Shown here: one piece after another, positions 1,693 to 61,226 of the stretch | Layout of the letters: each line of letters starts with the position of its first letter | How positions within the stretch are numbered: position 1 is the first letter of the stretch | NCBI GenBank assembly: GCA_026391075.1 | Contig: JAPLES010000009.1 | Location: 32,828-96,827 of the forward strand | DNA length: 64,000 nucleotides | Origin: Bacteroidota bacterium | GTDB lineage: Bacteria; Bacteroidota; Bacteroidia; Chitinophagales; LD1 | Direction: 5' to 3' | Position numbers and translations under genes: made by a program | Notes under the pieces: generated by a model | Databases searched by the model: none | What the model was told of the DNA's origin: nothing | What the model saw: only the letters and a program-made list of their open reading frames with translations

Positions 1693-2841
1693 ATGAAAAA
1701 ATATTTACTCGCCTTAATCGCACTCGTTCTCTCTGTGTCTGCGTTTTCTATTACATCTTTTACGCTCAACATGAATTATGAAAACACGGCAAGAGATTTT
1801 TTAGTGCATCTACCCACGGGATTTACCACTGCACAGCATGTTCCGATTGTGCTCAACATGCATGGACTTGGCTCTAATGGAGGGCAGCAGGAATTTTATT
1901 CGCGTATGAGTGAAACTTCAGACGCTAATAATTTTGTGGTGGTTTATCCGAATGGTATTGGGAACTCATGGAACTCGGGATTTACTGCGCCTTACAATAG
2001 TTCGCCAGATGATGTGGGTTTTCTTTCGAAAATTATTGACACGCTTGCGCTGCTTTACAATATTGATTTGAACCGCGTATATGCAACCGGTATGAGCAAC
2101 GGTGGCTTTCAAAGTTACCGTCTTGCCTGCGATTTGGAGAACCGCATTGCTGCTATTGCTTCTGTAACGGGAACTATTAGTACGCTTACCGCTTTTAATT
2201 GCACGAGTCAATCGCGCAAAGTACCTGTGTTGCATATTCACGGAACGGAAGACCCGCTTGTGCCTTATGGAGGCGATGTGGGTTTTAAGAGTGTGGAAGA
2301 GACACTTAGTTTTTGGTTGGGACAAGACCAGTGCAGTGCAGTGAGCGATACGATTGCTTTGCCGAATATTAATTTGCTTGACAGTTCAACTGTGGAGCGG
2401 ATTCGTTATCAAAGTTGTGGTGATGGAACAGAAGTTTGGTTCTACAAAATAACAGGTGGTGGACATACCTGGCCCAACGCCACTTTCGATTATATCTACG
2501 GACCAACGAACAGAGACCTTGATGCAAGCCAGGAGATTTGGAATTTTTTCAATCGCTTTACTTTGAATGGACCGAACCGCTTGGAGGAAGTGAAAGAGGA
2601 AGATGTCGTAACTGTGTTTCCGAATCCGAGTAATGGGAAATACGAAATACGAATTGGGAAATACGAAATGGAACAGCCAATGCAGGTTTCTGTTTTTGAT
2701 ATGAGTGAAAGGAATGTTTTGCAACAGAAGGTTGTTTCGTCTTCTACCGAAGTAAATTTGTGTGCAATGGAGAGCGGGGTTTATTTTTTACGAGTAAAAG
2801 GAAAAGATTTTTTTGTGACGAAGAAGATTTTGAAAAATTAG
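1693..2841 (+). CDS. secreted esterase of the PHB-depolymerase/LpqC family with T9SS C-terminal domain
   Basis: Signal peptide MKKYLLALIALVLSVSAFS. HGLGSNG and GMSNGG nucleophile elbow, HIHGTEDPLVPY. C-terminus VFPNPSNGKYEIRI...GVYFLRV is a T9SS CTD. The TTG at 1621 is rejected because it overlaps the recA terminator. Confidence 0.8.
   Translation: MKKYLLALIALVLSVSAFSITSFTLNMNYENTARDFLVHLPTGFTTAQHVPIVLNMHGLGSNGGQQEFYSRMSETSDANNFVVVYPNGIGNSWNSGFTAPYNSSPDDVGFLSKIIDTLALLYNIDLNRVYATGMSNGGFQSYRLACDLENRIAAIASVTGTISTLTAFNCTSQSRKVPVLHIHGTEDPLVPYGGDVGFKSVEETLSFWLGQDQCSAVSDTIALPNINLLDSSTVERIRYQSCGDGTEVWFYKITGGGHTWPNATFDYIYGPTNRDLDASQEIWNFFNRFTLNGPNRLEEVKEEDVVTVFPNPSNGKYEIRIGKYEMEQPMQVSVFDMSERNVLQQKVVSSSTEVNLCAMESGVYFLRVKGKDFFVTKKILKN
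2638..2672. repeat. heptamer tandem repeat (aaatacg aaatacg aattggg aaatacg aaatgga) inside the T9SS CTD codons
   Basis: Five consecutive 7-nt units read directly; they encode KYEIRIGKYEME. Confidence 0.8.
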
Positions 2842-2842
2842 C

Positions 2843-4084
2843 ATGTCGGTACAAACCATTCTAAAGTTTTTGAAAAACAACCCTCTGCTGTGCATTGTAG
2901 TTCTACTAAGCCCTTATCTTATAGTTAAATCAATTTATGGTGGGGAGTTCAATACTTATTTAGAAGCCGCAAAACAATTACGAGCAGGAGTTGATTGCTA
3001 CAATATTTGGCTTACACATGATAATGGAACATCAACACAATATGGTTATAGTCCCCTATTCGCAACACTCTTAATTCCGTTTACATTTTTGCCATCTTGG
3101 GTTCCTTCCCTTTTGTTTCTTCTAGCAGATGTTGTTATGCTGTTTCGGGTTTTTCGTTTGATTACTGAATGGTTACAGCTTAAAGAATTCTCCGGGAAAA
3201 ATTTATGGTTAAGCTTGGTCCTTATTTTTTCTTTAAGGTTTATTCTACACAATTTTGAAATGGTGCAACTCAACATTTTTTTATTGTGGCTTTCACTGGA
3301 AGGGTTACAGCAAATATTTTTTTCGAAAAGAATTCTGCTTGGAACTTTTCTGATTTCATTAGGAATTAATTTCAAAATTTTACCTGTTGTTTTTGTGCCT
3401 TACTTGTTGTACCGAAAAGAATTCCAATCGGTTGGTCTAATATGTGGATGGGGTTTGTTGTTCGCAATACTGCCTGCTTCTGTTTTTGGTTTTGACTTTA
3501 ATACCCAGTTACATTCAGAGTGGTTAAACATTATCAATCCGTTTAATGAAAAATATGGTATCGGGCAAAACATAGAAAGCTATCGCATTCACGGTTTGTC
3601 GGCATTGTTTGTTGCTTATTTTTCAAAATACAATAACGATACTTTTCAGTGGTTGATTGTTTCGTTGAGCGACCAGGGCGTTCAATTATTGACAACCCTT
3701 TCTCGGTTAGCTTTTATTACTCTTACCTTTTACTTTTTGCGTACAAAACCTTTTTCTTCGTTTCAATCATCCCGCCATTTTGCATTTGAGGTTTCCTATT
3801 TGCTTTTGATTACTCCGCTCATTTTCCCACAACAGAATAAGTGGGCTTTTGTTTACATTCTCCCGGCTTTAGGATTAATATTTTATTCTTTGTTACAAAA
3901 ACAGAAAAGTTTTTTTTCAATCAAAGTGGTATTACTGTTGGCTGTTTTTATATTAACAACCCTCACTACCGATGGAATCATAGGGAAGCAACTGAATTAT
4001 TATACCGAATGTTTAAAGTTGGTGACCATAGGAACTATTTTAATAGTTCCGATATTAATGCTATCAAAACCAGAAGAAACATAG
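2843..4084 (+). CDS. polytopic membrane protein, GT-C fold glycosyltransferase-like (GT87/DUF2029-like)
   Basis: 413 aa, many hydrophobic helices, no soluble domain. The family assignment is from general resemblance only. Confidence 0.45.
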   Translation: MSVQTILKFLKNNPLLCIVVLLSPYLIVKSIYGGEFNTYLEAAKQLRAGVDCYNIWLTHDNGTSTQYGYSPLFATLLIPFTFLPSWVPSLLFLLADVVMLFRVFRLITEWLQLKEFSGKNLWLSLVLIFSLRFILHNFEMVQLNIFLLWLSLEGLQQIFFSKRILLGTFLISLGINFKILPVVFVPYLLYRKEFQSVGLICGWGLLFAILPASVFGFDFNTQLHSEWLNIINPFNEKYGIGQNIESYRIHGLSALFVAYFSKYNNDTFQWLIVSLSDQGVQLLTTLSRLAFITLTFYFLRTKPFSSFQSSRHFAFEVSYLLLITPLIFPQQNKWAFVYILPALGLIFYSLLQKQKSFFSIKVVLLLAVFILTTLTTDGIIGKQLNYYTECLKLVTIGTILIVPILMLSKPEET

Positions 4085-7200: not shown

Positions 7201-7873
7201 CGTAACTATTGCGAGTGATAAACCGATTATCTGCATTGGCGACAGCGCGCATGTATGTGTAACCACAACACACGGTTCTTATTTATGGAACCTCGGACAA
7301 ACCACGCAGTGCATTTACACCAAGCAAGCGGGCAATTATTATGTAACCGTAACCGATGGAAACTGCACCGCTACTTCTAATCACCTTGCAGTAAATATTT
7401 ATCCGCTTCCACCGGTTTCTATCAGTGTGAACGGAGACACCATGACGGCATATTCGGCAGTTACGTATCAATGGTATTTGAACAATGCAGAAATCGCAAA
7501 CGCTACTTCGCACATTTACATTGCCCAGCAAGCTGGCTATTACTCAGTGGCAATTACAGACACGAATGGCTGCCGTGTAGTTTCAAATAATGTTTTTGTA
7601 GGCGGAACAGGAATTGGAAATTTAAACGGTGATGCGCGGGTTGAACTCTATCCAAATCCAAGCGGTGGAAATTTTGAATTGCGGATTGCCAATTGCGAAT
7701 CTAAACAGCCATTGAACGTTTTTATTTTTGATGTAGAAGGAAGAAAAGTTTTTGAGCAGAAAATAATTGCCGCTACAACCAAAATGAATTTGCTCATGCT
7801 GGAAAGTGGAGTTTATTTTTTGAAGCTAAGCGGAAACAACTTCGCTATTACAAAAAAGATAATCAAAGACTAA
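4289..7873 (+). pseudogene. SBBP beta-propeller / PKD / SprB-repeat T9SS surface protein interrupted by one in-frame TAA at 5930-5932
   Basis: ORFs 4289..5932 and 5945..7873 share a frame. The signal peptide is only on the first and the T9SS CTD (LYPNPSGGNFELRI...GVYFLKL) only on the second. The repeat motif continues across the stop. PKD-like segment and three SprB-type repeats (CNSASGNASATITSGTGPYTYAWSNG...) lie in the second part. Confidence 0.7.
7670..7704. repeat. heptamer tandem repeat (aattttg aattgcg gattgcc aattgcg aatctaa) inside T9SS CTD codons
   Basis: Five 7-nt units read directly; they encode NFELRIANCESK. Confidence 0.75.
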
Positions 7874-10953: not shown

Positions 10954-12132
10954 ATGATTTTTTCGCCTCTCCTCGGTGTTTCCATTTTCTTTTCTGCGCT
11001 TTACTTACTACTGGTGCTTTACTTTTTTGTGGGATGGGTAAGAAGTCCGAAGTCCGAAGTTCGAAGCCTGCCTGAAGGACAGGCAGGTCCGAAGTCCGAA
11101 GCAGAACAGCCGTTTGTTTCCATCGTTATTCCTACACGTAACGAAAGCGAAAACATTAAAACCTGTTTGGAAAGTATTTTCAAACAAAACTATCCGAAGC
11201 ATTTGTTTGAAGTGGTTTTAGTAGATGATTTTTCTACCGACCCTACTTTGCGTTTTGCCCGCGAAATAAATCAACCGAATTTACTGGTGCTCGACCTCAT
11301 GCAATACATAGGCAACGCAGGTGAATATGTTCCAAACAAGAAAAAAGCAATTGCGCTCGGCATTAAAAATGCAAAGGGCGATTTGATTATTACTACCGAT
11401 GGCGATTGCACGGTTGGAGAAAACTGGTTAAGCACGATGGTGGATTATTTCACCAACAACGATTTCAAATTAGTGACTGCACCTGTAATGATGAAGCCTG
11501 CTTATTTTCCATTGCAGATTTTTCAGCAATTGGATGTAATGAACCTGATGGGAATTACAGGCGCTACTATTCGCTACAACATGCCCACCATGTGCAATGG
11601 AGCAAACCTGATGTATGCGAAACAAACTTTTCATGAAGTGGAAGGTTTCAAAGGCAATCATGATGTGCCAACGGGGGATGATATTTTTTTAATGCAAAAA
11701 GTAAATGAAAAATTTCCGGGCAGTATTGGCTTCGTGAAAAATTTCGATGCCTGTGTTTTTACAAAACCTGAGAAAGGATTGGGAAATTTTATTTCGCAGC
11801 GCATTCGCTGGATTTCAAAATCGGCACGCTACAGTAATTTTAAAATCACAAGCATTCTCTACTTCGCTTACTTTTTCAATCTGCTGATTATTCTCACCGC
11901 ATTGTTTGCCTTGCAAATGGATGAATTCAGTTGGCTGCCCGTTGCAGTTGCAGGGGGAACAAAACTCTTCGCAGATTTTATTTTCAATATTCCCGTTACC
12001 GTTTTCTTTCGCAAATGGTATATGCTTTTACTTTTACCAATCATCGAAATTTTTTACGTTTTATATGTAGTGTTGATTGGTCCGTTGAGTTTGATGGGAA
12101 GATATAGATGGAAGGACAGAAAAATTCGATAA
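10954..12132 (+). CDS. processive family-2 glycosyltransferase (D,D,D,QxxRW type) with N- and C-terminal TM segments
   Basis: VSIVIPTRNE, VDDFSTD, TTDGDC, GDDIF and QRIRW motifs, with C-terminal TM helices. Carries an in-frame repeat module in the linker after TM1. Confidence 0.85.
   Translation: MIFSPLLGVSIFFSALYLLLVLYFFVGWVRSPKSEVRSLPEGQAGPKSEAEQPFVSIVIPTRNESENIKTCLESIFKQNYPKHLFEVVLVDDFSTDPTLRFAREINQPNLLVLDLMQYIGNAGEYVPNKKKAIALGIKNAKGDLIITTDGDCTVGENWLSTMVDYFTNNDFKLVTAPVMMKPAYFPLQIFQQLDVMNLMGITGATIRYNMPTMCNGANLMYAKQTFHEVEGFKGNHDVPTGDDIFLMQKVNEKFPGSIGFVKNFDACVFTKPEKGLGNFISQRIRWISKSARYSNFKITSILYFAYFFNLLIILTALFALQMDEFSWLPVAVAGGTKLFADFIFNIPVTVFFRKWYMLLLLPIIEIFYVLYVVLIGPLSLMGRYRWKDRKIR
11044..11106. 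repeat. 63-nt in-frame module: (AGTCCGA)n - hairpin - (AGTCCGA)n
   Basis: agtccga agtccga agttcga, then the hairpin cctgcctg(11067-74)/caggcagg(11080-87), then ggtccga agtccga agcagaa. Nine 7-nt phases equal 21 codons (SPKSEVRSLPEGQAGPKSEAE). Confidence 0.85.
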
Positions 12133-14452: not shown

Positions 14453-14459
14453 AGTAACG

Positions 14460-14487
14460 ATTGAAGATTTAATATTGAAGATTGAAA
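14460..14487. repeat. heptamer tandem repeat (attgaag atttaat attgaag attgaaa) in the divergent intergenic region
   Basis: Read directly. Same alternating ATTGAAN/ATTTAAN pattern as 22965..22999. Confidence 0.75.
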
Positions 14488-22959: not shown

Positions 22960-22964
22960 CCTTG

Positions 22965-22999
22965 ATTGAAAATTTAAGATTGGAAATTTAAGATTGGAA
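22965..22999. repeat. heptamer tandem repeat (attgaaa atttaag attggaa atttaag attggaa) at the cysC-cysD junction
   Basis: Read directly. It supplies the last codons of cysC (…IPILNFQS) and the cysC-cysD spacer. Confidence 0.8.
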
Positions 23000-25183: not shown

Positions 25184-26782
25184 ATGAAAACAAAATTTAC
25201 ACTCGTGACAATGCTCATAGCGGCATTCTTCACACAAGCACAAACGCCAGCCATGGTAAAAGACATCAACAGCGGTTCTGGCGGTTCCAACACCACCGCT
25301 TTGATTGATGTAAACGGAACACTTTTTTTAAGAGCCAGTGATGGCACCAACGGTAACGAGCTTTGGAAAAGCAATGGTACCGATGCCGGAACGGTGATGG
25401 TCAAAAACATTGACCCGACCACGAACGGTTCTGCTTCGGGTCAGTACACCAATGTAAACGGCACTTTATTTTTCCACGCCAACGATGGCACACACGGTAA
25501 AGAACTTTGGAAGAGTGATGGAACTGATGCAGGAACTGTGTTGGTTAAAGACATTTCTTTTGGCTTAGGTGATACCGATTTGGAATTTTTGGTGAACGTA
25601 AATGGCATTTGTGTTTTTCAGATTAACGGTGAGGAACTTTGGAGAAGTGACGGCACTGATGCCGGAACATACATGCTCATGGCTCCAAGTATCAATACCG
25701 GAATAGGGTTTAATGTGCGCACCGATTTCTGTGTGATGAATGGCATTATGTTTTTTCAAGGTGAAGACACGACCAATGGCGATGAACTTTGGAAAACAGA
25801 TGGCACCACTGCAGGAACAGTTTTAGTCAAGGATATTAAACCGGGAATCGATGGCTCAGGACCAGAATATTTTAAAGAAGTAAACGGCACCATGTTTTTT
25901 AGTGCGAAAGATGCAAGTGGTTATGGTATATGGAAAAGCGATGGAACAAATCCAGGAACTGTTTTAGTAGCAAATTTGCCCGAGCCATTTGGCTTTAATG
26001 GCGGTGCAACTCAGTTAACCAACGTAAACGGAACTTTGTTTTACACGGCTTCTGACCAATTTGTAAATGGATTTGAATTATGGAAAAGTGATGGAACAGC
26101 AGCAGGAACTGTCTTGGTAAAAGATATCAATCCCGGCACACCTGATTCTGGTCCCGGTTTATTAACTAATGTAAACGGTACACTTTTTTTCACAGCCACT
26201 GATGGCACTAACGGAAATGAACTTTGGAAGAGTGATGGCACTTCAGCAGGAACGGTAATGGTGAAAAACTTAGACGCACTGTATTCAGATTTTACCAACG
26301 CTAACGGCACACTTTATTTTGTAGCATTGGTTTCGAGCAGCGGCTCTGAACTTTGGAAGAGTGACGGAACTGATGCCGGCACAACTATAGTGGCAGATAT
26401 TATGCCTGGTGTGCAATCTTCATTACCCGCATCGCTTACTGTTGTTGGTACTAATTTGTTTTTTGTAGCTAACGATGGCACACACGGCAAAGAACTTTGG
26501 AATATCAGCGGTTTGCCTTCGGCAATTGAAGAAGAAAAAACAGTTTCAACCTTCACTCTTTTTCCAAATCCTGTTGCAAAGAGTTTCGAGTTGCGGATTA
26601 CGGGTTACGAGTTGAATACAGAAATGCAATTACAAATTTTTGATTTGGCAGGAAAACTAATTCGTTCAGAAAAAATTTCTTCTAATCGAATTGATGTTTC
26701 GGAACTGGCAAATGGATTTTACACTTTGTCCTTAAACACAAACGGTAAAAGTCAACAACAAAAATTTATAGTTCAACACTAA
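25184..26782 (+). CDS. ELWxxDGT-repeat protein with T9SS C-terminal domain
   Basis: Signal peptide, about 11 repeats of NG(T/N)LFF...DG.(H/N)G.ELWKSDGT.AGT, and C-terminal LFPNPVAKSFELRI...GFYTLSL. Confidence 0.85.
   Translation: MKTKFTLVTMLIAAFFTQAQTPAMVKDINSGSGGSNTTALIDVNGTLFLRASDGTNGNELWKSNGTDAGTVMVKNIDPTTNGSASGQYTNVNGTLFFHANDGTHGKELWKSDGTDAGTVLVKDISFGLGDTDLEFLVNVNGICVFQINGEELWRSDGTDAGTYMLMAPSINTGIGFNVRTDFCVMNGIMFFQGEDTTNGDELWKTDGTTAGTVLVKDIKPGIDGSGPEYFKEVNGTMFFSAKDASGYGIWKSDGTNPGTVLVANLPEPFGFNGGATQLTNVNGTLFYTASDQFVNGFELWKSDGTAAGTVLVKDINPGTPDSGPGLLTNVNGTLFFTATDGTNGNELWKSDGTSAGTVMVKNLDALYSDFTNANGTLYFVALVSSSGSELWKSDGTDAGTTIVADIMPGVQSSLPASLTVVGTNLFFVANDGTHGKELWNISGLPSAIEEEKTVSTFTLFPNPVAKSFELRITGYELNTEMQLQIFDLAGKLIRSEKISSNRIDVSELANGFYTLSLNTNGKSQQQKFIVQH
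26582..26616. repeat. heptamer tandem repeat (agtttcg agttgcg gattacg ggttacg agttgaa) inside T9SS CTD codons
   Basis: Five 7-nt units read directly; they encode SFELRITGYELN. Confidence 0.8.
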
Positions 26783-26823
26783 TTCTTCATGAAGCAATAA
26801 GAATTTGATTTCTATTGCTAAAG

Positions 26824-26857
26824 CGGAAGTTGGTGAAAGCCACTTCCGTTTTTTTAT
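26824..26857 (+). terminator. rho-independent terminator
   Basis: cggaagt(t)gg pairs with ccacttccg (one bulge), followed by a T-run. Confidence 0.55.
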
Positions 26858-26908
26858 TTGCGTTTGTTGAAGAAGAAGTTTTACTTTTCATCCATAAAAT
26901 ATTAACTC

Positions 26909-28177
26909 ATGAAGCAACTTCTACTATCTATCGCAGTTCTTCTTTCGCTTTCTCTCTTTGCACAAATTACTCAACCGCTACAACCCGATTTTGGACCGGG
27001 CGGTAACAGCTATACGAACGGAGGTGTTACGCAATATGATTATGGCACCAATGGAAACGGAGAAGATTTTTGGTTGTATGAACCAAACACGCCAACTCCT
27101 GATTCGGCAAACGTGGTGGTGTTCATTCACGGTCTTGGCGAAACCAATCCGAAACTTTACGGAGCGTTCATTAAGCATTTGGTACGCAAAGGAAATATTG
27201 TGATTTATCCACGCTACCAGCGAACTTTAGATTTTGCCGCGCAAATTGTCAGCTATAACGACAGTTGCGCCAAGGGAATTCAACGTGCGTTAGATACTAT
27301 TCAACAAGCAGGTCATGTGAAAGGCAGAAGAGAAAAATTTTTCCTGCTCGGTCACTCTGTAGGAGGTGTGCTTACCGCAGATATGGCCATGCTTTATGCG
27401 CAATATGGTTTGCCAAAACCGCTCAGTGCATTTTCTATGCAACCGGGGGCCGCTAATTATTTAATGAGCGATTACTCTTCGTTTCCTTCTGATATTCCGT
27501 ATTTAATTTTGGTTAGTCAAGATGATGCGGTGGTGGCCACAGCACCAGGTACTACCATCTTTAACCAATCGGTTAATGCGCCAACCTCACATAAAAATTT
27601 GGTGCACACATATAGCGATAGTCACGGCTCGCCTGGAATTACCGCTACACATTTTGACCCATTAGCCGGTGACGCTGCTTTTGATAATGGAGAAACAAAT
27701 TTGTTTATCAGTCTTTCGGGCAATGGACCCGTTGATGCATTTGATTATTACTGCACTTGGAAACTACAAGATGCGTTGATGGATTGCGCGTTGCACAACC
27801 AAAATTGTGAATACGCTTTTGGAGATACACCTGAACAACACGGCTTGGGAAATTGGAGCGATGGAACACCGGTACGCGTTTTGGAAATTACTCCGCAAGC
27901 TGTTTTGGGAATTAATGATTCGAAAAATGAAATTTCAGTTTCTGTTTTTCCCAATCCTTCGAAGGGAAATTATGAATTGCGAATTACGAATTACGAAATG
28001 AAACAACTTATAAAATTTGACTTGTATGATGTAAGGGGAGCGTTGTTGGAGCAAAAAGAAATTCAATCTTCAGTCTTCAATTTTCAATCTTCAATCCTTA
28101 GTAGCGGTATTTATTTTTATCAATTGAAAAATTCTTCAAACGAAATTTTGAAGAGCGGAAAATTGGTAGTAGAATAA
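26909..28177 (+). CDS. secreted alpha/beta-hydrolase with T9SS C-terminal domain
   Basis: Signal peptide, GHSVGG nucleophile elbow, and C-terminal VFPNPSKGNYELRI...GIYFYQL. Confidence 0.75.
   Translation: MKQLLLSIAVLLSLSLFAQITQPLQPDFGPGGNSYTNGGVTQYDYGTNGNGEDFWLYEPNTPTPDSANVVVFIHGLGETNPKLYGAFIKHLVRKGNIVIYPRYQRTLDFAAQIVSYNDSCAKGIQRALDTIQQAGHVKGRREKFFLLGHSVGGVLTADMAMLYAQYGLPKPLSAFSMQPGAANYLMSDYSSFPSDIPYLILVSQDDAVVATAPGTTIFNQSVNAPTSHKNLVHTYSDSHGSPGITATHFDPLAGDAAFDNGETNLFISLSGNGPVDAFDYYCTWKLQDALMDCALHNQNCEYAFGDTPEQHGLGNWSDGTPVRVLEITPQAVLGINDSKNEISVSVFPNPSKGNYELRITNYEMKQLIKFDLYDVRGALLEQKEIQSSVFNFQSSILSSGIYFYQLKNSSNEILKSGKLVVE
27968..28002. repeat. heptamer tandem repeat (aattatg aattgcg aattacg aattacg aaatgaa) inside T9SS CTD codons
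   Basis: Five 7-nt units read directly; they encode NYELRITNYEMK. Confidence 0.85.
28061..28102. repeat. heptamer tandem repeat (attcaat cttcagt cttcaat tttcaat cttcaat ccttagt) inside the same T9SS CTD
   Basis: Six 7-nt units read directly; they encode IQSSVFNFQSSILS. Confidence 0.8.
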
Positions 28178-30426: not shown

Positions 30427-30870
30427 TTATTTCAGTTTGATTTTATCGCGCACGATAAATGCACCGGGGTATAAAGGTGTGATGCGCTGTAAAAAATAGG
30501 TGGCTTCTAAGCGGGAAGAAAAGTCGCCCATGCGCAGTTTGAAATAGGGCTGTTCATACTCTACATACGAAGCAAGTTCCGAAAACTCTTTATACATAGT
30601 CCCTTTGCTTTTGTAAACCTCATCGCGAATGTCGGTGTACATAATTTGTATGCGATAGCCATCGGTAAATTCTTTTCTGCGGTTATACTCCTTGTATTTG
30701 TAAAGCAGTTCAGAAGTTTTTACATCCTGCTTTACAGAAAAATTTTTGTTCGCTGAAATTGCTGAACTGTCCTGTGAGTAAGAGGCAGCGCATGACAAAC
30801 AACAGGCAACAGAAAGAAAAATCAGTCTGTATAAATTTTGAAACTTGAAATTGAAATTTGAAACTTTCAT
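30427..30870 (-). CDS. SPOR-domain protein
   Basis: C-terminal YRIQIMYT...YFKLRMGDFSSRLEATYFLQRI resembles a SPOR fold. The ATG at 30870 overlaps the deoC stop (ATGA). Confidence 0.65.
   Translation of the reverse strand: MKVSNFNFKFQNLYRLIFLSVACCLSCAASYSQDSSAISANKNFSVKQDVKTSELLYKYKEYNRRKEFTDGYRIQIMYTDIRDEVYKSKGTMYKEFSELASYVEYEQPYFKLRMGDFSSRLEATYFLQRITPLYPGAFIVRDKIKLK
30836..30865. repeat. imperfect 6-7-nt tandem repeat (ttttgaa acttgaa attgaaa tttgaaa) in the first codons of the SPOR gene
   Basis: TTGAA recurs at spacings of 7, 6 and 7 nt. On the minus strand it encodes MKVSNFNFKFQN. Confidence 0.6.
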
Positions 30871-36127: not shown

Positions 36128-39100
36128 ATGAAAAACCTCAACCCTCAAAAACCAAATTGGCATTTTGCATTTTTCCTGTCTTGTGTCTTAAGTCTATTGT
36201 CTTACGTCTCTTTTGCACAATCTATTTGCTTTGACCCCGCTGCCGACAACCGTTTCGAAAGCGGTATTTATCCGCAACAGGTAGCCAAAGCCGATTTTAA
36301 TAACGACACAAAACTAGATATTGCTGCTGCCAATTCTATTGGTGGCGGTGTGTCTGTGCTCTTCGGAAATGGCGATGGAACATTCGCCACGCCATTTGCA
36401 CTCACCACAAGTTCGACTTTTCCAGAGTGTATTGTAGCCGCTGATTTTAATAGCGATAACAAACCGGATATTATAGTGATGGAACGCGGAAGCAATCCCG
36501 AATTGGAGTTATATATCAATAACGGCAACGGAACTTTTGCATCAGCTATTCCGTTTTCGTTTAACGCAGGAGGCACTTCAGTTGAAATGCGCGGTGCAGA
36601 CTTTGACAATGACGGCAAAATTGATTTGGTAGTAAATAATTATGGCTTAAACAAACTGTATATTCTGAAAAACAACGCTAACAGCACACTTACTGTGTTA
36701 GATTCGCTGAATACAACCGGACAGCCAACTTACATAGCAGTTGGTGATTTAAATAATGATAACAGACCCGATATTGCAGTGGGTGGATTCTACTCTGCCC
36801 CGAATAACGATAGCATATACTATTACATCAACAATGGAAACGGAACTTTTAATACCGGTGGATATTTTGTACTTGGTATTACAGGTGCTTATTACCACGA
36901 CCTGGCAATTGGTGATATCAACAACGATAATTTCGGTGATTTAATTGTGGAAGGAGCGGCTGATATAAGAGTGTATCTGAACAACGGCTCTTTAGTTTTT
37001 GCACTGCAACCCATTGTTCAGGTGGGCGGTTACGCTTTTGAAATTCTTATTGCCGATGTAAATGGAGATACCAAAAAGGACATAATTGAGGTTGACCAAA
37101 GTGGTGGCACCGTGGTTGTAGCGCTCGGCAATAACAATGGCACCTTTCAACCTTATAATTCATACAGCACAAACGGAAAACCTTACCATGCCATGTTAGG
37201 CGATTTTGATGGCGACACCCGGAATGATTTGGTAAGTGCTTGCCGCGATAATTCATACATCACCATTTTAAAAGGAAATGCTGATGGTTCGTTTGGTTCG
37301 TATTCGTTGCGTACCGGATTGCACCCTGACGCTATTGCAACAGGTTTTGTAAACAACGATGCCTTTGAAGATTTGGTAACTGTGAATTCGCAAAGCAAAA
37401 GTATAAATACCATGCTCGGCAATGGTGACGGCACTTTCCAGCCTACTATTTTTGATTCGGTATGGATAGGTGCAGCTGATATAGTGCTGGGTGATTTTAA
37501 TAATGATACCAAAACCGATGCGGTGATGATAGGGCAAAACACAACAACTATTTTGTCGGGAGATAATACCGGTCACTTTACTATTGTAAGTGATTTAGTA
37601 TATGGCTTAAACGCCACGCAGGACAATAGTGGAGCAGTTGGCGATTTTAATCATGACAATAAATTAGATTTAGTGATTAGCGGTAGAGCCGATGATTCGG
37701 TTGCGGTGTTATTGGGCAACGGCAATTTCACTTTTGCTACTCCTTTAAAATATGGAGTAGGTGATTACCCTCGAAAGATTACAGCATTTCATATGAATGC
37801 TGATAACAATCTTGATTTGCTAGTGCCCAACGATTTAGGAAACAGCGTTTCGCTTTTGCTCGGAAACAGCAACGGAACTTTTCAGCCGGCTGTAACTATT
37901 TCTACCGGTGGCGGACCCAGAGCAATTGCCGCAGAAGATTTTAATAATGATGGCTTGCAGGATTTTGCGGCAACCTGTAGCAACGCATCAAGTATTGATG
38001 TGCACTTAGCTACCGCGCCCGGTGTGTTTGCAGCCCCGGTTTCCTATACCGTTGGTGCTAATGGTTCAGAATTTATTACTACTGCATTCATCAATGCTGA
38101 TACGCTGGTTGATTTAATTTTAACCAAGGATAATGCTAACCAAGTGGGTGTTTTTATAGGAAATGCAAATGGCACATTCCAAAACATGGTAACTTATTCG
38201 GTAGATAATGGGCCTTACGAATTAGTGAGTGCCGATTTCAATAACGATAATGTAGATGACATTGCTTCGGTAAACTATGGTGCAGGGAATGTTTCGGTTA
38301 TTCTGAACAACAGTGCATTTATTACTGCTTCCGGCAACACCGCAATTTGTACCGGTGATTCAGTACAGCTTACTGCCAGTGGAGGGTTCACTTATTTGTG
38401 GAGCACAGGTGCAACCACGCCATCTATTTATGTAAACAGTGCTGCTACTTATTCTTGCTCTGTAACCAATCAGGCAGGAACATGCACCGTTATTCCTCCA
38501 AGTGTAGCCGTTACAGTTTCGGGCAATACGCCAACAGTTACCTACGATATATCTAACAGTGACCGCTTTTGTATTTCCAGCGGAACACTCTCACTTGTGC
38601 TCACCGGTGGTTCGCCTCAAGGTGGAACCTACTCGGGAAGTTTTATAAACAATGGTGTTTTTAATTTAACTCAAGCAGGTGTAGGTGCACATTTAGTTAC
38701 CTATACTTATACAGACCCGGGAGGCTGCGGTACAGCGAGTGATAACGATTCACTTTTTATTGACAACGAAGTTTTAGCAAGCATCAATTTTCCTTCCGAT
38801 ACTTTTTGCGATAACGTAGGGCAAACTGTTTTGGCTCCTTTTGGTTCACCGGCAGGTGGAGCTTGGGGTGTAAACAACACCGTGATTACTACGGTTAATC
38901 CGTCACAGGCAGGGGTGGGAACTTATTTTATGCATTACGCTATTGTAGCGGGCGGTTGTAAAGACACAGCTTACGTAACTGCTGTAGTTGAACATTGCAC
39001 AGGTATAAATGAATTGGATGAAACGGTGCTGAATATTTATCCGAACCCGAGCAAAGGCACTTTTGTAATTTCTATTGCCAATGACCAGAAATTTTCATTG

Positions 39101-39250
39101 GTAAGAATTTTTGATGCCACCGGAAGAAAGCAAATGGAAAGCACATTAACCGACAACAAAATTTTGCTTAGTGAACTTGCTCGTGGAACGTATCTTGTGG
39201 AATTGAGTAACGAAAAAACAGTAGTGCGCAAACAGGTGGTAGTTCAATAA
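36128..39250 (+). CDS. FG-GAP/VCBS-repeat protein with Ig-like modules and T9SS C-terminal domain
   Basis: About 14 repeats of (A/G)DFN(N/G)D.K.D plus LLGNGNGTF, and C-terminal IYPNPSKGTFVISI...GTYLVEL. Confidence 0.85.
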   Translation: MKNLNPQKPNWHFAFFLSCVLSLLSYVSFAQSICFDPAADNRFESGIYPQQVAKADFNNDTKLDIAAANSIGGGVSVLFGNGDGTFATPFALTTSSTFPECIVAADFNSDNKPDIIVMERGSNPELELYINNGNGTFASAIPFSFNAGGTSVEMRGADFDNDGKIDLVVNNYGLNKLYILKNNANSTLTVLDSLNTTGQPTYIAVGDLNNDNRPDIAVGGFYSAPNNDSIYYYINNGNGTFNTGGYFVLGITGAYYHDLAIGDINNDNFGDLIVEGAADIRVYLNNGSLVFALQPIVQVGGYAFEILIADVNGDTKKDIIEVDQSGGTVVVALGNNNGTFQPYNSYSTNGKPYHAMLGDFDGDTRNDLVSACRDNSYITILKGNADGSFGSYSLRTGLHPDAIATGFVNNDAFEDLVTVNSQSKSINTMLGNGDGTFQPTIFDSVWIGAADIVLGDFNNDTKTDAVMIGQNTTTILSGDNTGHFTIVSDLVYGLNATQDNSGAVGDFNHDNKLDLVISGRADDSVAVLLGNGNFTFATPLKYGVGDYPRKITAFHMNADNNLDLLVPNDLGNSVSLLLGNSNGTFQPAVTISTGGGPRAIAAEDFNNDGLQDFAATCSNASSIDVHLATAPGVFAAPVSYTVGANGSEFITTAFINADTLVDLILTKDNANQVGVFIGNANGTFQNMVTYSVDNGPYELVSADFNNDNVDDIASVNYGAGNVSVILNNSAFITASGNTAICTGDSVQLTASGGFTYLWSTGATTPSIYVNSAATYSCSVTNQAGTCTVIPPSVAVTVSGNTPTVTYDISNSDRFCISSGTLSLVLTGGSPQGGTYSGSFINNGVFNLTQAGVGAHLVTYTYTDPGGCGTASDNDSLFIDNEVLASINFPSDTFCDNVGQTVLAPFGSPAGGAWGVNNTVITTVNPSQAGVGTYFMHYAIVAGGCKDTAYVTAVVEHCTGINELDETVLNIYPNPSKGTFVISIANDQKFSLVRIFDATGRKQMESTLTDNKILLSELARGTYLVELSNEKTVVRKQVVVQ

Positions 39251-44849: not shown

Positions 44850-47225
44850 GTGAAAAAGAACAGACAACAGACGACAGACAACAGACAACGGATAAAGACA
44901 TTGAACTCTTTGTCTTTATCTGCTTTCCTATTTCTTGTTTCATTTCAATTTTCTTTTTCGCAAGGCGATAGCACGAGTGGCATTATCAAACTTCGTCAGC
45001 GGTTGGTGCATATTAAACATGATGAAGGAAAAGAAACCGTTGACTCGTTTCGTATTCTGCATGTAATGATTGGCGGCAATGTTTATCAAACCGAAAAACA
45101 TTTGAACTACGCTTACGATGAAAAAACTAAGAAATATGATTTCAGAAATGAGTTCAAGTACATTCAACCGATTTTAAATCTTGGTGACATCTCCATTGTG
45201 AATTTGAAAACATCGTTTGGCAACAACGTAAAAAATATGTTTTCAGCTCCCGATGAATTTGCCTTGGCGCTAAAATATGCGGGCATCAATGTGGCTATGC
45301 ACGCCAATATTCACACGGCTAATATCAGCAAAGCGATGTTGAAGCGCACGCGCGATTTGCTGAACACCTATGATATGTATCACACGGGTGCGTTCACCGA
45401 TAATATGCAACGCAACGGAAACTATCCGCTTATTATCAACAAAAAAGGTTTTCGAATTGCGGTGTTGAATTATACGCGTGTAACTAATCGCCCGTCTATC
45501 TCCCGAGATTTTATCATTAACGAAATTGACAAGTTTACCATTCAGCGCGATATGCGAATGGCGTTGGCGCAAAAACCCGATTTTATAATTGCCTATTTCG
45601 ATTGGGGCGCGAACAATCAGGAAACTCCCAACTATATGCAAATGGATATTGCGCAATATGCGTTTCAGTTGGGCGCGAATATGGTGGTGGGTACTAACCC
45701 AAATGCCCCCATGCGCATTGACTACAACAATTACAATCGCAATGGCGAAATGAAAGAAGGTATCGTGGCTTACTCACTCGGAAATTTAATTGCGAGTAAT
45801 GACGAGGTAAAAAACCGCAAGGGTTATTTGATTGATTTGGAGTTGAAGAAAAATAATTTCACAGGCGAAACCGATGTGAACGATTGGGGCGCAATCCCCG
45901 TTTACACTTATTACGATACTACATCCGCAAATGGCGCAACAAAAGTTTTTTCGGTGCCGTGTTCTAATATCGAGAGTGGAGATATTTTTCCAAAGATTCC
46001 TTACATCGAAAAAAGAAGAGCCGTGAATTGCGCGTATGATGTGCGCAAACTTTTAGGCGCAACTGCGGATGAAATTCAATACAATCTCAACGAGCTTATC
46101 GTCAACAACGTTCAGGAAACTATTGACATCACGAGCGCATCGCTCAACAATAAATTCAGTCAAAAACGCGCCAGTGAAATTGAACCGGCTGATGCACCTG
46201 TTTTGCCAATGGCAAGTTTAGGGTCAAACAATCCGCCATCAATCGCTGTGTTATATGAAGAGCCGATTAAAGCGGAAACGCCTGTAGGAAAACAATATCC
46301 TAAAGCAAAAAGTATTCTTGACAATACAACCGAAGCAAGTGCGCTGACATCGAAACCAATAAATGGAAATGCGCCTAATCTTTATCCACAAGCAACAGAT
46401 AGTGTTACTCGGAAAACAATTACAGCTGTTTTGAATAATGAAAGTGTGGCGTTGAAAATTCCTACCGCAGATACTTCAGCTACAAATCCTGTTGTTGCAG
46501 AAAACAAAAAGGAGAATAAGAAAGCTTCAGCTAAAGAAAAAAATACAGTTGAGAAGAAAGCAGATGTAGTTGTTGCAAACAACGATTCAACAAAAATTGT
46601 TGCCGTTGCGAAAACCAAGGTTGCATCAAACGATAGTTCATCAATTGCAAAAAGCAATAAACAGAGCAGCGAGAATTTATTGACAGAAAAAGATTCTGTA
46701 AATAGAAAAAGCAAAACAACTGTTATTGATACATCAACCGCAAAAAACAAAACCAAAAATCAACCTGCTAATACGAATTATCACACCGTTGGCAATGATT
46801 ATGAACTGAAAGAAAAAGAGAGTACAGCAGCTAAACAGAAAAAAGCAGTAGCAGAAACTAAGGAAAGAGAAAAAGAAACCGCTATTGAAATAAACTCAAA
46901 CGCTACCGAGAATATTGCTGCAAAAAACACTTCATTACCTAGCACCGAAATTAAAACAATCAATGGAGCAAATTCGAAAGTGGTGTTTGATACTTTTTAT
47001 CGCATTCAGTTTTATGCACTCAAAAAATTCATTCCCCTCGACACAAACTACTACACACACTTGAAAGGATACGAAGTTCTGGAAGAAGATGGCTTGTTCA
47101 AATATTTGCTCGGCAAATTTAAAACCAACGAAGAGTGCGAACAATATTGGAAGACGCAAATACAACCGCGCTACAAGCAAAGTTTCATCAGTAAGTATGT
47201 TTCAGGCAAAAGAATTTTACAATGA
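44850..47225 (+). CDS. CapA-like (metallophosphatase-fold) protein fused through a long K/T/S/N-rich linker to a C-terminal SPOR domain
   Basis: The N-terminal half resembles the CapA/PGA_cap family. About 300 aa are low complexity. C-terminal FYRIQFYALKKF...FKYLLGKFKTNEECEQYW is SPOR-like. Start is uncertain (GTG 44850 or TTG 44901). Confidence 0.6.
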   Translation: MKKNRQQTTDNRQRIKTLNSLSLSAFLFLVSFQFSFSQGDSTSGIIKLRQRLVHIKHDEGKETVDSFRILHVMIGGNVYQTEKHLNYAYDEKTKKYDFRNEFKYIQPILNLGDISIVNLKTSFGNNVKNMFSAPDEFALALKYAGINVAMHANIHTANISKAMLKRTRDLLNTYDMYHTGAFTDNMQRNGNYPLIINKKGFRIAVLNYTRVTNRPSISRDFIINEIDKFTIQRDMRMALAQKPDFIIAYFDWGANNQETPNYMQMDIAQYAFQLGANMVVGTNPNAPMRIDYNNYNRNGEMKEGIVAYSLGNLIASNDEVKNRKGYLIDLELKKNNFTGETDVNDWGAIPVYTYYDTTSANGATKVFSVPCSNIESGDIFPKIPYIEKRRAVNCAYDVRKLLGATADEIQYNLNELIVNNVQETIDITSASLNNKFSQKRASEIEPADAPVLPMASLGSNNPPSIAVLYEEPIKAETPVGKQYPKAKSILDNTTEASALTSKPINGNAPNLYPQATDSVTRKTITAVLNNESVALKIPTADTSATNPVVAENKKENKKASAKEKNTVEKKADVVVANNDSTKIVAVAKTKVASNDSSSIAKSNKQSSENLLTEKDSVNRKSKTTVIDTSTAKNKTKNQPANTNYHTVGNDYELKEKESTAAKQKKAVAETKEREKETAIEINSNATENIAAKNTSLPSTEIKTINGANSKVVFDTFYRIQFYALKKFIPLDTNYYTHLKGYEVLEEDGLFKYLLGKFKTNEECEQYWKTQIQPRYKQSFISKYVSGKRILQ
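44861..44919. repeat. (CAGACAA)4-5 heptamer array followed by a 9-bp hairpin
   Basis: cagacaa cagacga cagacaa cagacaa cggataa, then ataaagaca (44892-900) pairs with tgtctttat (44911-19). Confidence 0.8.
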
Positions 47226-47941: not shown

Positions 47942-49287
47942 AAAAAATATTTGCATCTCTGTTTAGCACCCGAACTTTCAGCATGAATTTTCGGATTTTG
48001 GCGATGCTGTTCGTTGTTCAATTTTCAATATTTAATTTTCAATCTGCTTTCGCTCAGGCATCTTCGCCTTACTCCCGTTACGGTTTGGGCTACGTTCGTT
48101 CAACTGTTTTTTCGGCTAACAAAGGAATGGGTGAATTGGCTGCTCCTTATTTCAGTTCTGTAAATATAAATTACGCAAACCCTGCTTCCTATGCTTCGCT
48201 CACACGCACTACAGTTGAAATAGGTGCCAACTTTGACGGACTAAGCATTGTTAAGGATTCTACTTATAAAGCTTCGAGTGGCGGCATCAGTCATTTTGCA
48301 ATTGCGTTTGTTCCAAATCCCAAAAAGAACAGCTATGCTATCAGTCTTGGTTTGCTTCCATATACTAATATCAATTACACTTTCATTCAGAATTTTAATG
48401 ATTCTGCTATTGGCACTTATCGCGAAGTATTCAGCGGAACAGGTTCACTTTACCAGGTGTATGCGGGTGGTGCTTACAAAGTGAAAGGCTTTTCAATAGG
48501 AGCAAATTTTGGGTTTTTGTTCGGCAAATTAGATTATCAAAAAACCATCACTTTCCCCGATAGTATAGAAGCGTATAGCACACGTAACATTACCAACCTG
48601 AACGTGAAAAGTTTTATCTACAACATAGGCATACAATATCAGCGCAGAATTTTTCATAACGATAACGACCCCGATGCACGCAGCGATATCTTCTTTACGT
48701 TTGGTGCTTATGGTTCAAGCGGAATGAAAATGGATGCGAAACTTTCGAATCGTTGGGAGCGATTTGAATACAATTCTACCTACGGATTTATTGCAGTTGA
48801 TACGGCAGCGGCTTCGTTCAACAAAAAATCAAAAATCAATTTGCCTTTTAATATTGGAACGGGTGTAATGTTTGGTAACGAGCGCTATTGGATGGCGGGT
48901 ATCGATTTCAAATTCATGAACTGGAAAAATTTCACTTCACCTTTGAACAATGCAGGGCTGAATGATAGCTGGAGAATTTCTGTGGGCTTTCAAATTACAC
49001 CGAAGTATGATGAACTCGACAAGAAAAAATATTTGAGCCGCGTGCAATATCGTTTTGGCGGTTACTATGGTGTTAGTGAAATCAACCTAAACGGAAAAGC
49101 ACTTACGCAGGCAGGTGGAACTATCGGAATTGGATTTCCATTCCGTTCAGTGGGCAGATTAAATATCAGTGGCGATTTCGGCACGCGTGGCGGGAGTGAC
49201 AAAAGCATTTTCCGCGAAAACTATTACAAACTCACCTTCGGCTTTGTGTTGAACGATATCTGGTTTATCAAGCGTAAATTTGATTGA
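47938..49287 (+). CDS. putative outer-membrane beta-barrel protein
   Basis: Signal peptide ending AFAQ, alternating beta-strand pattern, aromatic C-terminus (…WFIKRKFD). Sits between coaX and lptC. Confidence 0.5.
   Translation: MKKIFASLFSTRTFSMNFRILAMLFVVQFSIFNFQSAFAQASSPYSRYGLGYVRSTVFSANKGMGELAAPYFSSVNINYANPASYASLTRTTVEIGANFDGLSIVKDSTYKASSGGISHFAIAFVPNPKKNSYAISLGLLPYTNINYTFIQNFNDSAIGTYREVFSGTGSLYQVYAGGAYKVKGFSIGANFGFLFGKLDYQKTITFPDSIEAYSTRNITNLNVKSFIYNIGIQYQRRIFHNDNDPDARSDIFFTFGAYGSSGMKMDAKLSNRWERFEYNSTYGFIAVDTAAASFNKKSKINLPFNIGTGVMFGNERYWMAGIDFKFMNWKNFTSPLNNAGLNDSWRISVGFQITPKYDELDKKKYLSRVQYRFGGYYGVSEINLNGKALTQAGGTIGIGFPFRSVGRLNISGDFGTRGGSDKSIFRENYYKLTFGFVLNDIWFIKRKFD
48016..48043. repeat. 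heptamer tandem repeat (gttcaat tttcaat atttaat tttcaat) encoding a signal-peptide core
   Basis: Read directly; it encodes VQFSIFNFQS of the signal peptide. Confidence 0.75.
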
Positions 49288-49288
49288 G

Positions 49289-49879
49289 ATGAATTGCGCA
49301 AAAAACAAATTGCAGTTGAACGCGCTGTTTCACTTTCTATCTATTGTCTTTTGTCTATCGTCTATAATCTCACTTTCTTCTTGTGGCAATAATTCTGAAA
49401 CTGCGAAGCTGATTATCTCTCGCGCCAACGTAAATATTGAAAAGGGAAAGGACGTTGAAATAAATTATTCCGATGAAGGAGTGGTGCGTATTCAAGCAAG
49501 CGGACATACCGTTACGCGCTACAACACCGCTAAACCTTACCTCGAATTTTCTGACGGAATGAAACTTCTGTTTTACAATGCCGACCACAAAGTAGAAAGC
49601 ACGCTCACAGCCAAGTATGCTACCGCCATTGAAAACAGTCACTCTATGACAGCGCGCGATAGCGTGGTGGTGGTCAACCAAAAAGGGGAAATTTTAAATA
49701 CCGATGAATTGATTTGGGATGAAGACAAAAAAATAATTTACTCAAATTCGTTTGTAAAGATTACAACACCCGATGAAATTATTTACGGCAATGGAATGAC
49801 CGCCAACGAAAACTTTACCGATTATGTGATTAAGCACATCACGGGAACCATAAGAGTAAGGACAAGTCAACTCGAATAA
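49289..49879 (+). CDS. lptC: LPS export periplasmic protein LptC (lipoprotein form)
   Basis: Lipobox LSSC. The body resembles LptC (…LLFYNADHKVESTLTAKYA…DELIWDEDKKIIYSNSFVKITTPDEIIYGNGM). Confidence 0.7.
   Translation: MNCAKNKLQLNALFHFLSIVFCLSSIISLSSCGNNSETAKLIISRANVNIEKGKDVEINYSDEGVVRIQASGHTVTRYNTAKPYLEFSDGMKLLFYNADHKVESTLTAKYATAIENSHSMTARDSVVVVNQKGEILNTDELIWDEDKKIIYSNSFVKITTPDEIIYGNGMTANENFTDYVIKHITGTIRVRTSQLE
49335..49369. repeat. heptamer tandem repeat (ttctatc tattgtc ttttgtc tatcgtc tataatc) encoding the lptC signal-peptide core
   Basis: Read directly. The GTCTNTN phase is the reverse-complement family of CAGACAA at 44861. Confidence 0.75.
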
Positions 49880-60410: not shown

Positions 60411-61226
60411 ATGTCGAAACAAAATAAACAGGCGATGCAGCGCGAAAAAATTTACGAACTCCTCGAACGCAAATACAAGGAACACAACTCGGCTGTTTTC
60501 ATTGAAACCGACCCCATTTCTATTCCTCATCGCTTTTCAAAAAAACAGGATATAGAAATTGCGGCTTTCTTTTCTGCCACCATTGCATGGGGAAACCGAA
60601 AATCAATTATCACTTCGGCTAACAAATTGATGAACCTGACGGATAACGCTCCACATGATTTTGTATTGAATCATCAGGATAAAGATTTGAAACGTTTGCT
60701 TGATTTCAAGCACCGAACTTTTAACGCTACCGACACACTTTATTTTGTTGAATTTTTGAAACAACATTATTTAAAACACGAAAGTTTGGAGGAAGCGTTT
60801 TTAAAGTCAGAAGTCCGAAGTCGGATGTCCGAAGCAACTACTGAAAATGCAATTGCTATTTTTCACGAGAACTTTTTTTCGCTTGAAGATTCTCCGCATC
60901 GTACACGTAAGCACATAGCCACTCCTGTTCGCGGAAGTACATGCAAGAGAATGAATATGTTTCTTAGGTGGATGGTACGAAAAGATAAAAGCGGAGTTGA
61001 TTTTGGAATTTGGAAGAAGATAAAACCCGCACAACTTTTAATTCCGCTTGATGTGCATGTAGACAGAACCGCACGCAAACTAGGCTTGATAAAACGCAAA
61101 CAAACCGATTGGGAAACTGTTTTGGAATTGACCGAAAATTTAAAATCGTTTGACCCTAAAGACCCGGTAAAATACGACTTCGCACTTTTCGGAATTAGTG
61201 TGTTGGATAAAATGCTGATACATTAG
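60411..61226 (+). CDS. TIGR02757/DUF2400-family protein
   Basis: Resembles the conserved family (DPISIPHRF, IAWGNRK, LIPLDVHV). ATG at 60411 or 60435. Contains an in-frame AGTCCGA repeat. Confidence 0.6.
   Translation: MSKQNKQAMQREKIYELLERKYKEHNSAVFIETDPISIPHRFSKKQDIEIAAFFSATIAWGNRKSIITSANKLMNLTDNAPHDFVLNHQDKDLKRLLDFKHRTFNATDTLYFVEFLKQHYLKHESLEEAFLKSEVRSRMSEATTENAIAIFHENFFSLEDSPHRTRKHIATPVRGSTCKRMNMFLRWMVRKDKSGVDFGIWKKIKPAQLLIPLDVHVDRTARKLGLIKRKQTDWETVLELTENLKSFDPKDPVKYDFALFGISVLDKMLIH
60805..60832. repeat. (AGTCCGA)-family heptamer repeat inside coding sequence (agtcaga agtccga agtcgga tgtccga)
   Basis: Read directly. 60809-60822 is an exact 14-mer copy of 11041-11054. Confidence 0.8.

Follow-up and report, generated by a model that had tools for sequence, protein, structure and literature searches.

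Heptanucleotide repeat arrays inside type IX secretion sorting domains as likely frameshift hotspots in Bacteroidota

How can the strand of a folded export signal be encoded by a simple DNA repeat whose unit is not a multiple of three nucleotides? This question is raised by a 64,000-nt stretch of a Bacteroidota genome (assembly GCA_026391075.1, contig JAPLES010000009.1, positions 32,828 to 96,827), which was analysed as a whole and is called the window hereafter. It has a GC content of 40%, and five of its encoded proteins end in a type A C-terminal domain (CTD1 to CTD5) of a type IX secretion system (T9SS). Directly 3' of the PNPxxG motif, four of the five CTDs carry a period-7 array of five tandem heptamers. 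These arrays had been proposed from the sequence in the original prediction, together with a second array of CTTCAAT units in CTD4, and all of them were confirmed at the following positions.

2638..2672, forward strand: CTD1 array 1, AAATACG AAATACG AATTGGG AAATACG AAATGGA, encoding KYEIRIGKYEME
7670..7704, forward strand: CTD2 array 1, AATTTTG AATTGCG GATTGCC AATTGCG AATCTAA, encoding NFELRIANCESK
26582..26616, forward strand: CTD3 array 1, AGTTTCG AGTTGCG GATTACG GGTTACG AGTTGAA, encoding SFELRITGYELN
27968..28002, forward strand: CTD4 array 1, AATTATG AATTGCG AATTACG AATTACG AAATGAA, encoding NYELRITNYEMK
28061..28102, forward strand: CTD4 array 2, ATTCAAT CTTCAGT CTTCAAT TTTCAAT CTTCAAT CCTTAGT, i.e. 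(CTTCAAT)x5-6, encoding IQSSVFNFQSSILS

The common unit NNTTNCG assigned to the arrays stands only in part, since the AAATACG of CTD1 does not fit it. Tandem Repeats Finder (score 30) lists four of the five CTD arrays and leaves out 26582-26616, and the CTD2 array is the weakest of the four that follow PNPxxG. Reading (TACGAAT)3 in frame gives TAC GAA TTA CGA ATT ACG AAT, i.e. YELRITN, so that 21 nt encode seven residues.

By sequence, position and predicted fold, the CTDs of the window are ordinary T9SS type A domains (PF18962; 8glk_D, 8gl8_D, 8qb1). All five proteins matched the PF18962 (Por_Secre_tail) profile with 36.9-63.9 bits, compared to the curated cut-off of 27, and in each of them the match covered the last 70-75 residues. 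CTD3 and CTD4 belong to the following cargo genes.

25184..26782, forward strand: cargo gene 3, a repeat-rich secreted protein of 532 aa with PF18962 at residues 459-530 (E=2e-13)
26909..28177, forward strand: cargo gene 4, an alpha/beta-hydrolase of 422 aa with a signal peptide, ending in a T9SS type A CTD

The orthologues of cargo 4 are named esterase, polyhydroxybutyrate depolymerase or T9SS type A sorting domain protein in their sources, which are metagenome-assembled genomes (MAGs) of Chitinophagales. Its own sequence reads as having a putative N-terminal Sec signal peptide (MKQLLLSIAVLLSLSLFAQ...) and a conserved C-terminal Lys in ...KSGKLVVE. The AlphaFold2 model of CTD4 (predicted local distance difference test score 89) has seven strands in a beta-sandwich. 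In this model, array 1 forms beta-strand 2 (N17-T23) together with half of the loop behind it, so the segment is more than the loop of the earlier description. Array 2 runs from the end of strand 4 through a turn and strand 5 into a loop. Foldseek and profile searches matched solved T9SS CTDs, with 8glk_D (the NucA CTD in the translocon) as best match and 8gl8_D, 8gl6_D and 8qb1 also among the best, at modest Foldseek E-values (1e-3). Conservation is reported to be poor on the CTD surface that contacts the translocon, and it is the fold that the conserved motifs specify (Lauber et al., 2024; PMC10994853), which fits the anatomy of the heptamer unit with its fixed core and free positions.

Is the periodicity a property of the DNA, or is it dictated by the peptide? 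Synonymous codons were resampled using the codon usage of the window, and the lag-7 identities were compared with those observed. The expectation that synonymous sites preserve the 7-nt period was borne out for CTD1, CTD3 and CTD4 and not for CTD2. In CTD1 and in array 2 of CTD4 (27/35), the periodicity lay beyond all synonymous resamples (p<5e-5 each). CTD3 (20-21/32; p=1e-4, in a second run p<2e-4) and array 1 of CTD4 (p=0.012) were also above expectation, and CTD2 with 19/32 showed no excess over codon usage (p about 0.1-0.14). Taking the best 35 nt after PNP, scored out of 28, the four array CTDs of the window reached 19-21, with 18-24 as the wider range for array CTDs, compared to 5-14 in 17 unrelated CTDs from other loci and to 13 in the fifth CTD of the window.

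39026..39247, forward strand: CTD5, the array-free control domain, lag-7 score 13/28

Altogether, 15 of the 17 array-position CTD sequences tested exceeded the expectation from peptide plus codon usage, for example those of the loci L088 (31/32), L089 (30/32), L094 (30/32) and L096 (27/32).

The orthologues show how the unit changes over time. Syntenic loci were fetched from metagenomes with the adjacent M20 peptidase as anchor, and full-length or partial cargo-4 orthologues were identified. Locus L023 retains AATTACG and has the peptide NYELSITNYEW. In the relative L006, array 1 reads AATTTAC AGTTTAC AGTTGCT GGTTTCG, so that the peptide NYELRITNYEM of the window is replaced by NLQFTVAGFEF and the 7-nt period is kept; the orthologue check that had been suggested thus came out in favour of a repeat. 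Array 2 of L006 consists of five ATCAATC/ATCAATT units at the same place as in CTD4. Substitutions between the window and L006 cluster by unit phase (array 2, p=0.004; array 1, p=0.014), and no such clustering was found at periods 3, 5, 6, 8 and 9. Base 6 of the array-2 unit is T in four of the five window units and C in the remaining one; of the four L023 units, three have T and one has C, and all L006 units have A. These changes fall on codon positions 3, 1 and 2, where they are synonymous, F to I and F to Y, respectively. The pattern is one of concerted evolution of the DNA unit and not one at the level of the protein. A CTD3 orthologue in L096 likewise has a different unit, AGTTGAC (NLQLTVDGLKLN).

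Among 120 representatives of cargo-4 orthologues, those above approximately 60% identity have array-type peptides at both positions with many different units. Below approximately 60% identity, peptide scores are at noise level and the orthologues are array-free; like CTD5, they bear out the earlier statement that the fold does not need the array. The repeat dynamic thus arose in one clade or is active there. In a codon-by-codon alignment, orthologues with and without arrays have equal length, hence insertion of a mobile element was ruled out and the dynamic works in place. The variable block of the CTD is bounded by the conserved flanks SVSVFPNP and GxYFYQLKNSSNEILKSGKLVVE. An apparent frame difference through array 2 between window and L006 (MAFFT) was rejected as an alignment artefact, because the protein alignment QSS(V/I)(F/I)N(F/Y)Q is in the same register with only in-frame length differences. 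As a separate observation, the cargo-3 orthologue of L096 (1275-2846) ends early (NTNGKI*), without the last CTD strand that is present in the window (…NTNGKSQQQKFIVQH), and its sorting signal may be defective.

How far does this kind of CTD reach beyond the window? A search with the single CTD4 protein sequence returned one relative only, so an alignment was used as query. With a profile of the four window CTDs, 93,283 CTDs were retrieved from 1.84 billion representative proteins at E <=1e-3. A scan of genome contigs with the CTD alignment gave at least 600 pattern matches with five confirmed relatives, which is not a census, and did not recover the genome of the window itself. Peptides resembling (E/Q)LRITNYELRI follow PNPxxG in approximately 25 of the best 150 among the 93,283 CTDs. 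An alignment of such ELRITNYELRI-like CTDs recovered 847 more, with source names of Bacteroidales, Bacteroidia or Bacteroidetes MAG proteins. Judged from sequence, a very large CTD subfamily, which includes Chitinophagales, Bacteroidales and other MAGs, has the array after PNPxxG as a common trait and encodes strand 2 by near-perfect heptamers. The peptides of this subfamily are two co-varying tandem copies of seven residues, e.g. ELRIEN-G-ELRIEN-V, and further examples are ELRITNYELRITN, ELRVTSYELQVTS, QLTIDNEQLTINN, ELKIENGELKIEN, ELRIMNYELRIMN and ELQITNYELQITS. Each tandem variant is the translation of a heptamer array that differs in one or two unit bases. For example, the change from GAATTAC to GAGTTAC predicts the joint replacement of I by V and of N by S, and both were seen. 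DNA look-ups found the predicted arrays in 7/7 sequences with lag identities of 24-27/28, and six units were confirmed. The relation of unit to peptide is as follows.

GAGTTAC: ELRVTSY
GAGAATT/G: ELRIENG
GACAATT: QLTIDNE
AATTGAA: ELKIENG
AATTACA: ELQITNY
GAATTAT: ELRIMNY
GAATTAC: ELRITNY

The synonymous codons for Leu and Arg track the unit as well, with TTA plus CGA in one case and TTG plus AGA in another. In arrays of GAATTGA, a unit that would give TGA in one frame, every third unit is patched (GAGAATG), which shows that selection keeps the frame open in addition to the repeat. When peptides alone were scored by a 12-point fit against all 16,384 possible heptamer units, shuffled sequences reached at most 7/12, and 85 of 116 family members reached at least 9/12 with at least 20 distinct units. 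The mid-domain place of CTD4 array 2 is also occupied by a second repeat in other members, which consists of GCAGAAA heptamers in L093 and L094, TACTCAC heptamers in L088 and ATCATCTC octamers in L089-L091; in L093 the GCAGAAA unit is found in both linker and CTD. A different type of element was noticed in L002 (~3090-3140), where a palindrome (CCCCTCCAAT-TC-ATTGGAGGGG) is translated within a CTD loop as ...SNSLEGWQPQADGVV, and this peptide recurs in other CTDs (P0228, P0248, P0256).

What does the gain or loss of a unit do to the protein? The original prediction held that a change by one unit would frameshift the sorting signal, and a natural variant of this kind was found in a close relative. 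The 90%-identity cluster of cargo 4 contains P0291 (422 aa, 14 contigs) and P0294 (361 aa, ending ...GNYELRITK). Over 7,086 nt, the corresponding loci L096 (NCBI GCA_947479455.1) and L095 (ENA ERZ27277814) differ by a single AATTACG unit and at no other position. With a perfect (AATTACG)x4 array, L096 encodes the protein of 422 aa with an intact CTD; with (AATTACG)x3, L095 runs into a stop two codons past the array (RITK*), and the protein of 361 aa has lost the remaining CTD. Assembly collapse is an unlikely source of the x3 allele, because the 28-nt array is far shorter than the assembler k-mer (k141, as suggested by the contig name). Simulated loss of one unit from array 1 of the window CTD4 gives the same ...RITK*, and the gain of one unit gives a stop eight codons past the array. 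In each window array, a simulated change by one unit in either direction shortens the protein by 19-61 residues. Four perfect adjacent units are present in the relatives L096, L088 and L002.

Broken frames were also noticed around other members of the subfamily. In L093 (1332-1425) and L091 (~150-230), the open reading frames (ORFs) of cargo and CTD do not share a frame and are separated by a long (GCAGAAR)n array or by a 24-nt repeat; these cases may be OFF states or assembly errors. In L094, the cargo and CTD ORFs are divided by one in-frame stop.

DNA periodicity beyond codon usage, concerted changes of the unit and a natural one-unit frameshift allele are thus observed. We consider it approximately 80% probable that the arrays are heptanucleotide simple sequence repeats (SSRs) within the sorting domain, that the CTD core filters the units that survive and that the arrays represent frameshift hotspots. 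Since seven is not a multiple of three, successive units are read in all three frames, with (AATTACG)3 giving N-Y-E-L-R-I-T. The conserved AATT/AGTT core supplies Leu, Ile/Val and Asn/Ser of beta-strand 2; if the strand alternates as usual, these residues would be buried or form the turn, and the three free unit positions supply the remaining, presumably surface, residues. Turnover at the DNA level would keep the arrays repetitive, through slippage during replication and possibly also through conversion on a local scale. A base change in one unit would spread to all units and alter several residues together. The arrays belong to a lineage-specific, genome-wide abundance of heptamers that persist where the protein tolerates them, i.e. 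in signal peptides and linkers, in the strands of CTDs and between genes. When one unit is gained or lost, the frame shifts and the rest of the CTD is deleted, and the cargo would be left unsecreted.

Several findings weigh against this interpretation. A truncation located in the array was found in one case only among approximately 60 close orthologue sequences in 11 clusters, and inspection of the ten further orthologue clusters did not find a second one. The window arrays are imperfect, with at most two identical adjacent units, and the sole other copy of the window genome, L007 (Logan SRR20698652), is identical, so no switching was seen for this organism. The step of choosing the best window slightly favours the observed values in the resampling of the 17 sequences. 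In L097 the peptide fits (AGTTGGC)n with 10/10, yet the DNA is not periodic (15/32, p=0.35), hence peptide-only scores may overcount. Furthermore, with no length change between array and non-array orthologues, simple slippage is no obvious explanation. For P0377 (SWQLAVGSKVVG), an encoding by (AGTTGGC)n had been predicted as well, but the DNA did not bear this out, and the peptide reflects a fossil array or coincidence. Some CTD strands may be such fossil arrays that are now held by protein selection.

Are the CTDs a special place for heptamers? Seven period-7 arrays were detected in the window (at least four units, at least 80% lag identity), compared to none after codon-block shuffling and 0-2 for other periods from 4 to 15. 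CTD DNA makes up 1.8% of the window and contains 5 of 15 period-7 rows (binomial p=5e-6). The other arrays belong to the unit families GAAGTCC, TTCAATC/GATTGAA and ACAGACA/TGTCTAT, and they are located between genes, in regions that encode signal peptides (48017, 49338, 30838) and in linkers (11037, 60804).

11037..11101, forward strand: a pair of GAAGTCC arrays in the linker at the N-terminus of a GT2 glycosyltransferase
14459..14486, no strand assigned: intergenic array of GATTGAA, a unit that is reverse-complementary to that of CTD4 array 2
30838..30866, reverse strand: array of heptamers that read GTTTCAA on the coding strand and lie within the first 11 codons for a 147-aa protein
44855..44900, forward strand: AACAGAC array of approximately six units, at or upstream of a gene start
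48017..48043, forward strand: TTCAATT array within a signal-peptide coding region (VQFSIFNFQSAFA)
49338..49365, forward strand: TGTCTAT array within a lipoprotein signal peptide (LSIVFCLSSIISLSSC)
60804..60834, forward strand: AAGTCCG array inside the ORF 60339-61226

Hence, the unit of CTD4 array 2 recurs in the same genome as TTCAATC/GATTGAA at 14459 and 48017. Together with the turnover of units in place, this supports one part of the earlier idea that the domain recurrently acquires heptamers of its genome. GTTTCCR units stand at the same place in the L006 and L096 orthologues of the 147-aa protein. The density of period-7 arrays is 10.9 per 100 kb in the window and 10 in close relatives, compared to 0.8-1.6 in more distant loci and 83 in loci of the Bacteroidales-type family.

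Several repeats next to these arrays deserve mention. At 11060-11090, between the GAAGTCC arrays, 21 extra nt (LPEGQAG) form an inverted repeat (GCCTGCCTG aagga CAGGCAGG); this insert is missing in five of six close relatives, whose protein is seven residues shorter (385 vs 392 aa). The AACAGAC array is immediately followed by a 10-bp inverted repeat (GATAAAGACA ... TGTCTTTATC) within 44855-44930, at or before the start of the ORF 44850-47225. The sequence (TTGTCTA)n reads LSIVYCL, which forms the hydrophobic core and Cys of lipoprotein signal peptides in two different genes, at 49338-49365 of the window and at the N-terminus of p147 in L096 and L006. A 14-nt repeat at 22964-22999 (GATTGGAAATTTAA x2.6), related to the TTCAAT units, spans the junction of two minus-strand genes. 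On Bacteroidales-type contigs, GAAGTTA x7 lies between rpsL and rpsG (L088, 817-876), a pure ATCTAAT x9 array ends at a start codon (L093, 2604-2676), and L092 has a pure CACCTTT/CACCCTT x17 array at 854-975.

Two further genes of the window show irregular features. Cargo 2 comprises the ORFs 4289-5932 and 5945-7873 in one frame, interrupted by a single in-frame TAA at 5930-5932 that sits within a repeat motif (...TYFGSAG*EQAYLLDLDKNGNVYIFG); the pair is probably one protein of ~1,190 aa with a premature stop, a pseudogene or a sequencing error. The ORF 33195-36023 encodes 942 aa with collagen triple-helix repeats (9- and 18-nt repeats in the DNA) and a Peptidase_S74 (endosialidase chaperone) domain, an architecture that we take to be typical of phage tail fibres. 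Together with its neighbours 31560-33011 and 36128-39250, it is absent between DeoC and SecA in the relative L006.

Is the frameshift selected, i.e. are the arrays contingency loci that reversibly switch T9SS cargo between a secreted or surface-attached and a periplasm-retained state? Such phase variation would explain why non-triplet repeats lie within ORFs of secreted or surface proteins and why near-perfect arrays with many different units are retained across deep divergence. The x4/x3 allele pair in an otherwise identical 7-kb background, the truncation of the CTD by every simulated unit change and the different frames of cargo and CTD across the repeat-rich linkers of L091 and L093 are in line with it, and homogenisation at 7 nt, not at 21 nt, suggests repeated single-unit events. 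However, the arrays have a short length of 4-6 units, in which every third unit is often patched, the OFF allele is a single one in approximately 60 sequences, frame breaks in metagenome contigs can be errors, and the same genomes hold heptamer arrays at many sites without obvious switch function. We therefore see selected switching as a tentative reading that has the odds somewhat against it. The same tentative standing is given to the broader proposal that heptamer and some octamer arrays at two fixed CTD positions form a widespread, undescribed Bacteroidota switch between export and periplasmic retention of T9SS cargo, and that the same repeat process writes modules such as CTD strands and signal-peptide cores from one unit in three frames.

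Three other explanations were weighed. It is hardly credible that the 7-nt period merely results from the amphipathic peptide of a strand combined with AT-rich codon usage. By itself, the peptide does lift the expected lag-7 identity to 11-20/32, compared to approximately 9 for random sequence, CTD2 and L097 stay within the peptide-based expectation, and the NucA CTD of F. johnsoniae (8glk_D) has a similar GNFNIGLNNFNF pattern. But this leaves aside the synonymous sites that track the unit in 15/17 sequences, the co-variation of residues that fits single unit-base changes, the orthologues that alter the peptide yet keep the period, and the clustering of substitutions at period 7, not period 3. 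An exchange among genes or related species of the repeat-bounded variable block, with the arrays serving as or marking the exchange unit, appears unlikely, although it draws on several facts. Three linked block types exist, NYELRIT..+IQSSIFNFQSS, SFEFRVSS..+QSSIINHQF and SWQFTVG..+IQNLKSKIE (P0289-P0296, P0336, P0342, P0347), both flanks of the block are conserved, and the window protein is 93.8% identical to a type-2 protein and 89.4% to a type-1 protein. The block types are interspersed on a similarity tree of the catalytic domain, which suggests allele or block exchange or long-lived polymorphism, but this tree is a simple UPGMA (unweighted pair group method with arithmetic mean) on identities. 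Moreover, window and L096 are both type 1, yet their blocks differ by eye at many positions (overall identity 83%). The repeat-derived cassette of the original prediction holds in that the array after PNPxxG is typical of a very large subfamily, and fails as a recent spread, since the four array CTDs of the window share only 27-45% pairwise identity. Finally, the arrays could be binding sites or RNA elements whose coding is incidental. In other bacteria, heptamers that lie immediately upstream of start codons have been suggested to act as regulator sites (PMC4679880), and comparable upstream placements occur in L088 and L093, but at least 20 different units at one CTD position speak against a sequence-specific binder and make this reading very improbable.

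Which known systems do SSRs in a sorting domain resemble? In SSR contingency loci, such as those with pentamers in the signal-peptide region of Neisseria opa genes or tetramers in Haemophilus, slipped-strand mispairing leads to phase variation. The CTD arrays share with them a non-triplet tandem repeat in the ORF of a surface or secreted protein, the frame shift by one unit and the natural one-unit allele pair, here in a close relative. In contrast, the CTD repeats are located at the 3' end in a folded sorting domain, so that nothing but the export signal is lost from an otherwise intact cargo; they are short (4-6 units), are translated into a structural beta-strand, and their hosts are Bacteroidota. 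In Bacteroidota, phase variation is known mainly via invertible promoters and shufflons. Heptanucleotide repeats of the LSSR/STRR type are lineage-specific in Cyanobacteria, Beggiatoaceae and a few Bacteroidetes (MacGregor, 2015; PMC4679880, citing Mrazek, 2007). The arrays described here resemble them in the 7-nt unit, the lineage-specific abundance, the many unit families per genome and strain indels in 7-nt steps. However, those repeats were described as mainly intergenic, whereas the CTD arrays are read in frame as part of a conserved domain, in which their structural position is fixed across a large subfamily. Pure AATTACG arrays outside any CTD, apparently non-coding, were found in two cyanobacterial MAGs and one Akkermansia MAG. 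In the open-licence PMC and bioRxiv literature, we found no description of repeat-encoded CTD strands or of T9SS-linked SSRs or phase variation.

The window thus offers a clear case of a folded domain with strands encoded by a frame-cycling simple repeat. That one unit-base change shifts several residues together bears on the origin of new protein segments. The arrays split cargo and CTD into separate ORFs in metagenome annotation, hence secretome predictions need checking. If true, frameshifts that remove the export signal alone would give these bacteria a different means of varying their secreted and surface proteome one gene at a time, which would take in glycoside hydrolases, esterases and adhesins.

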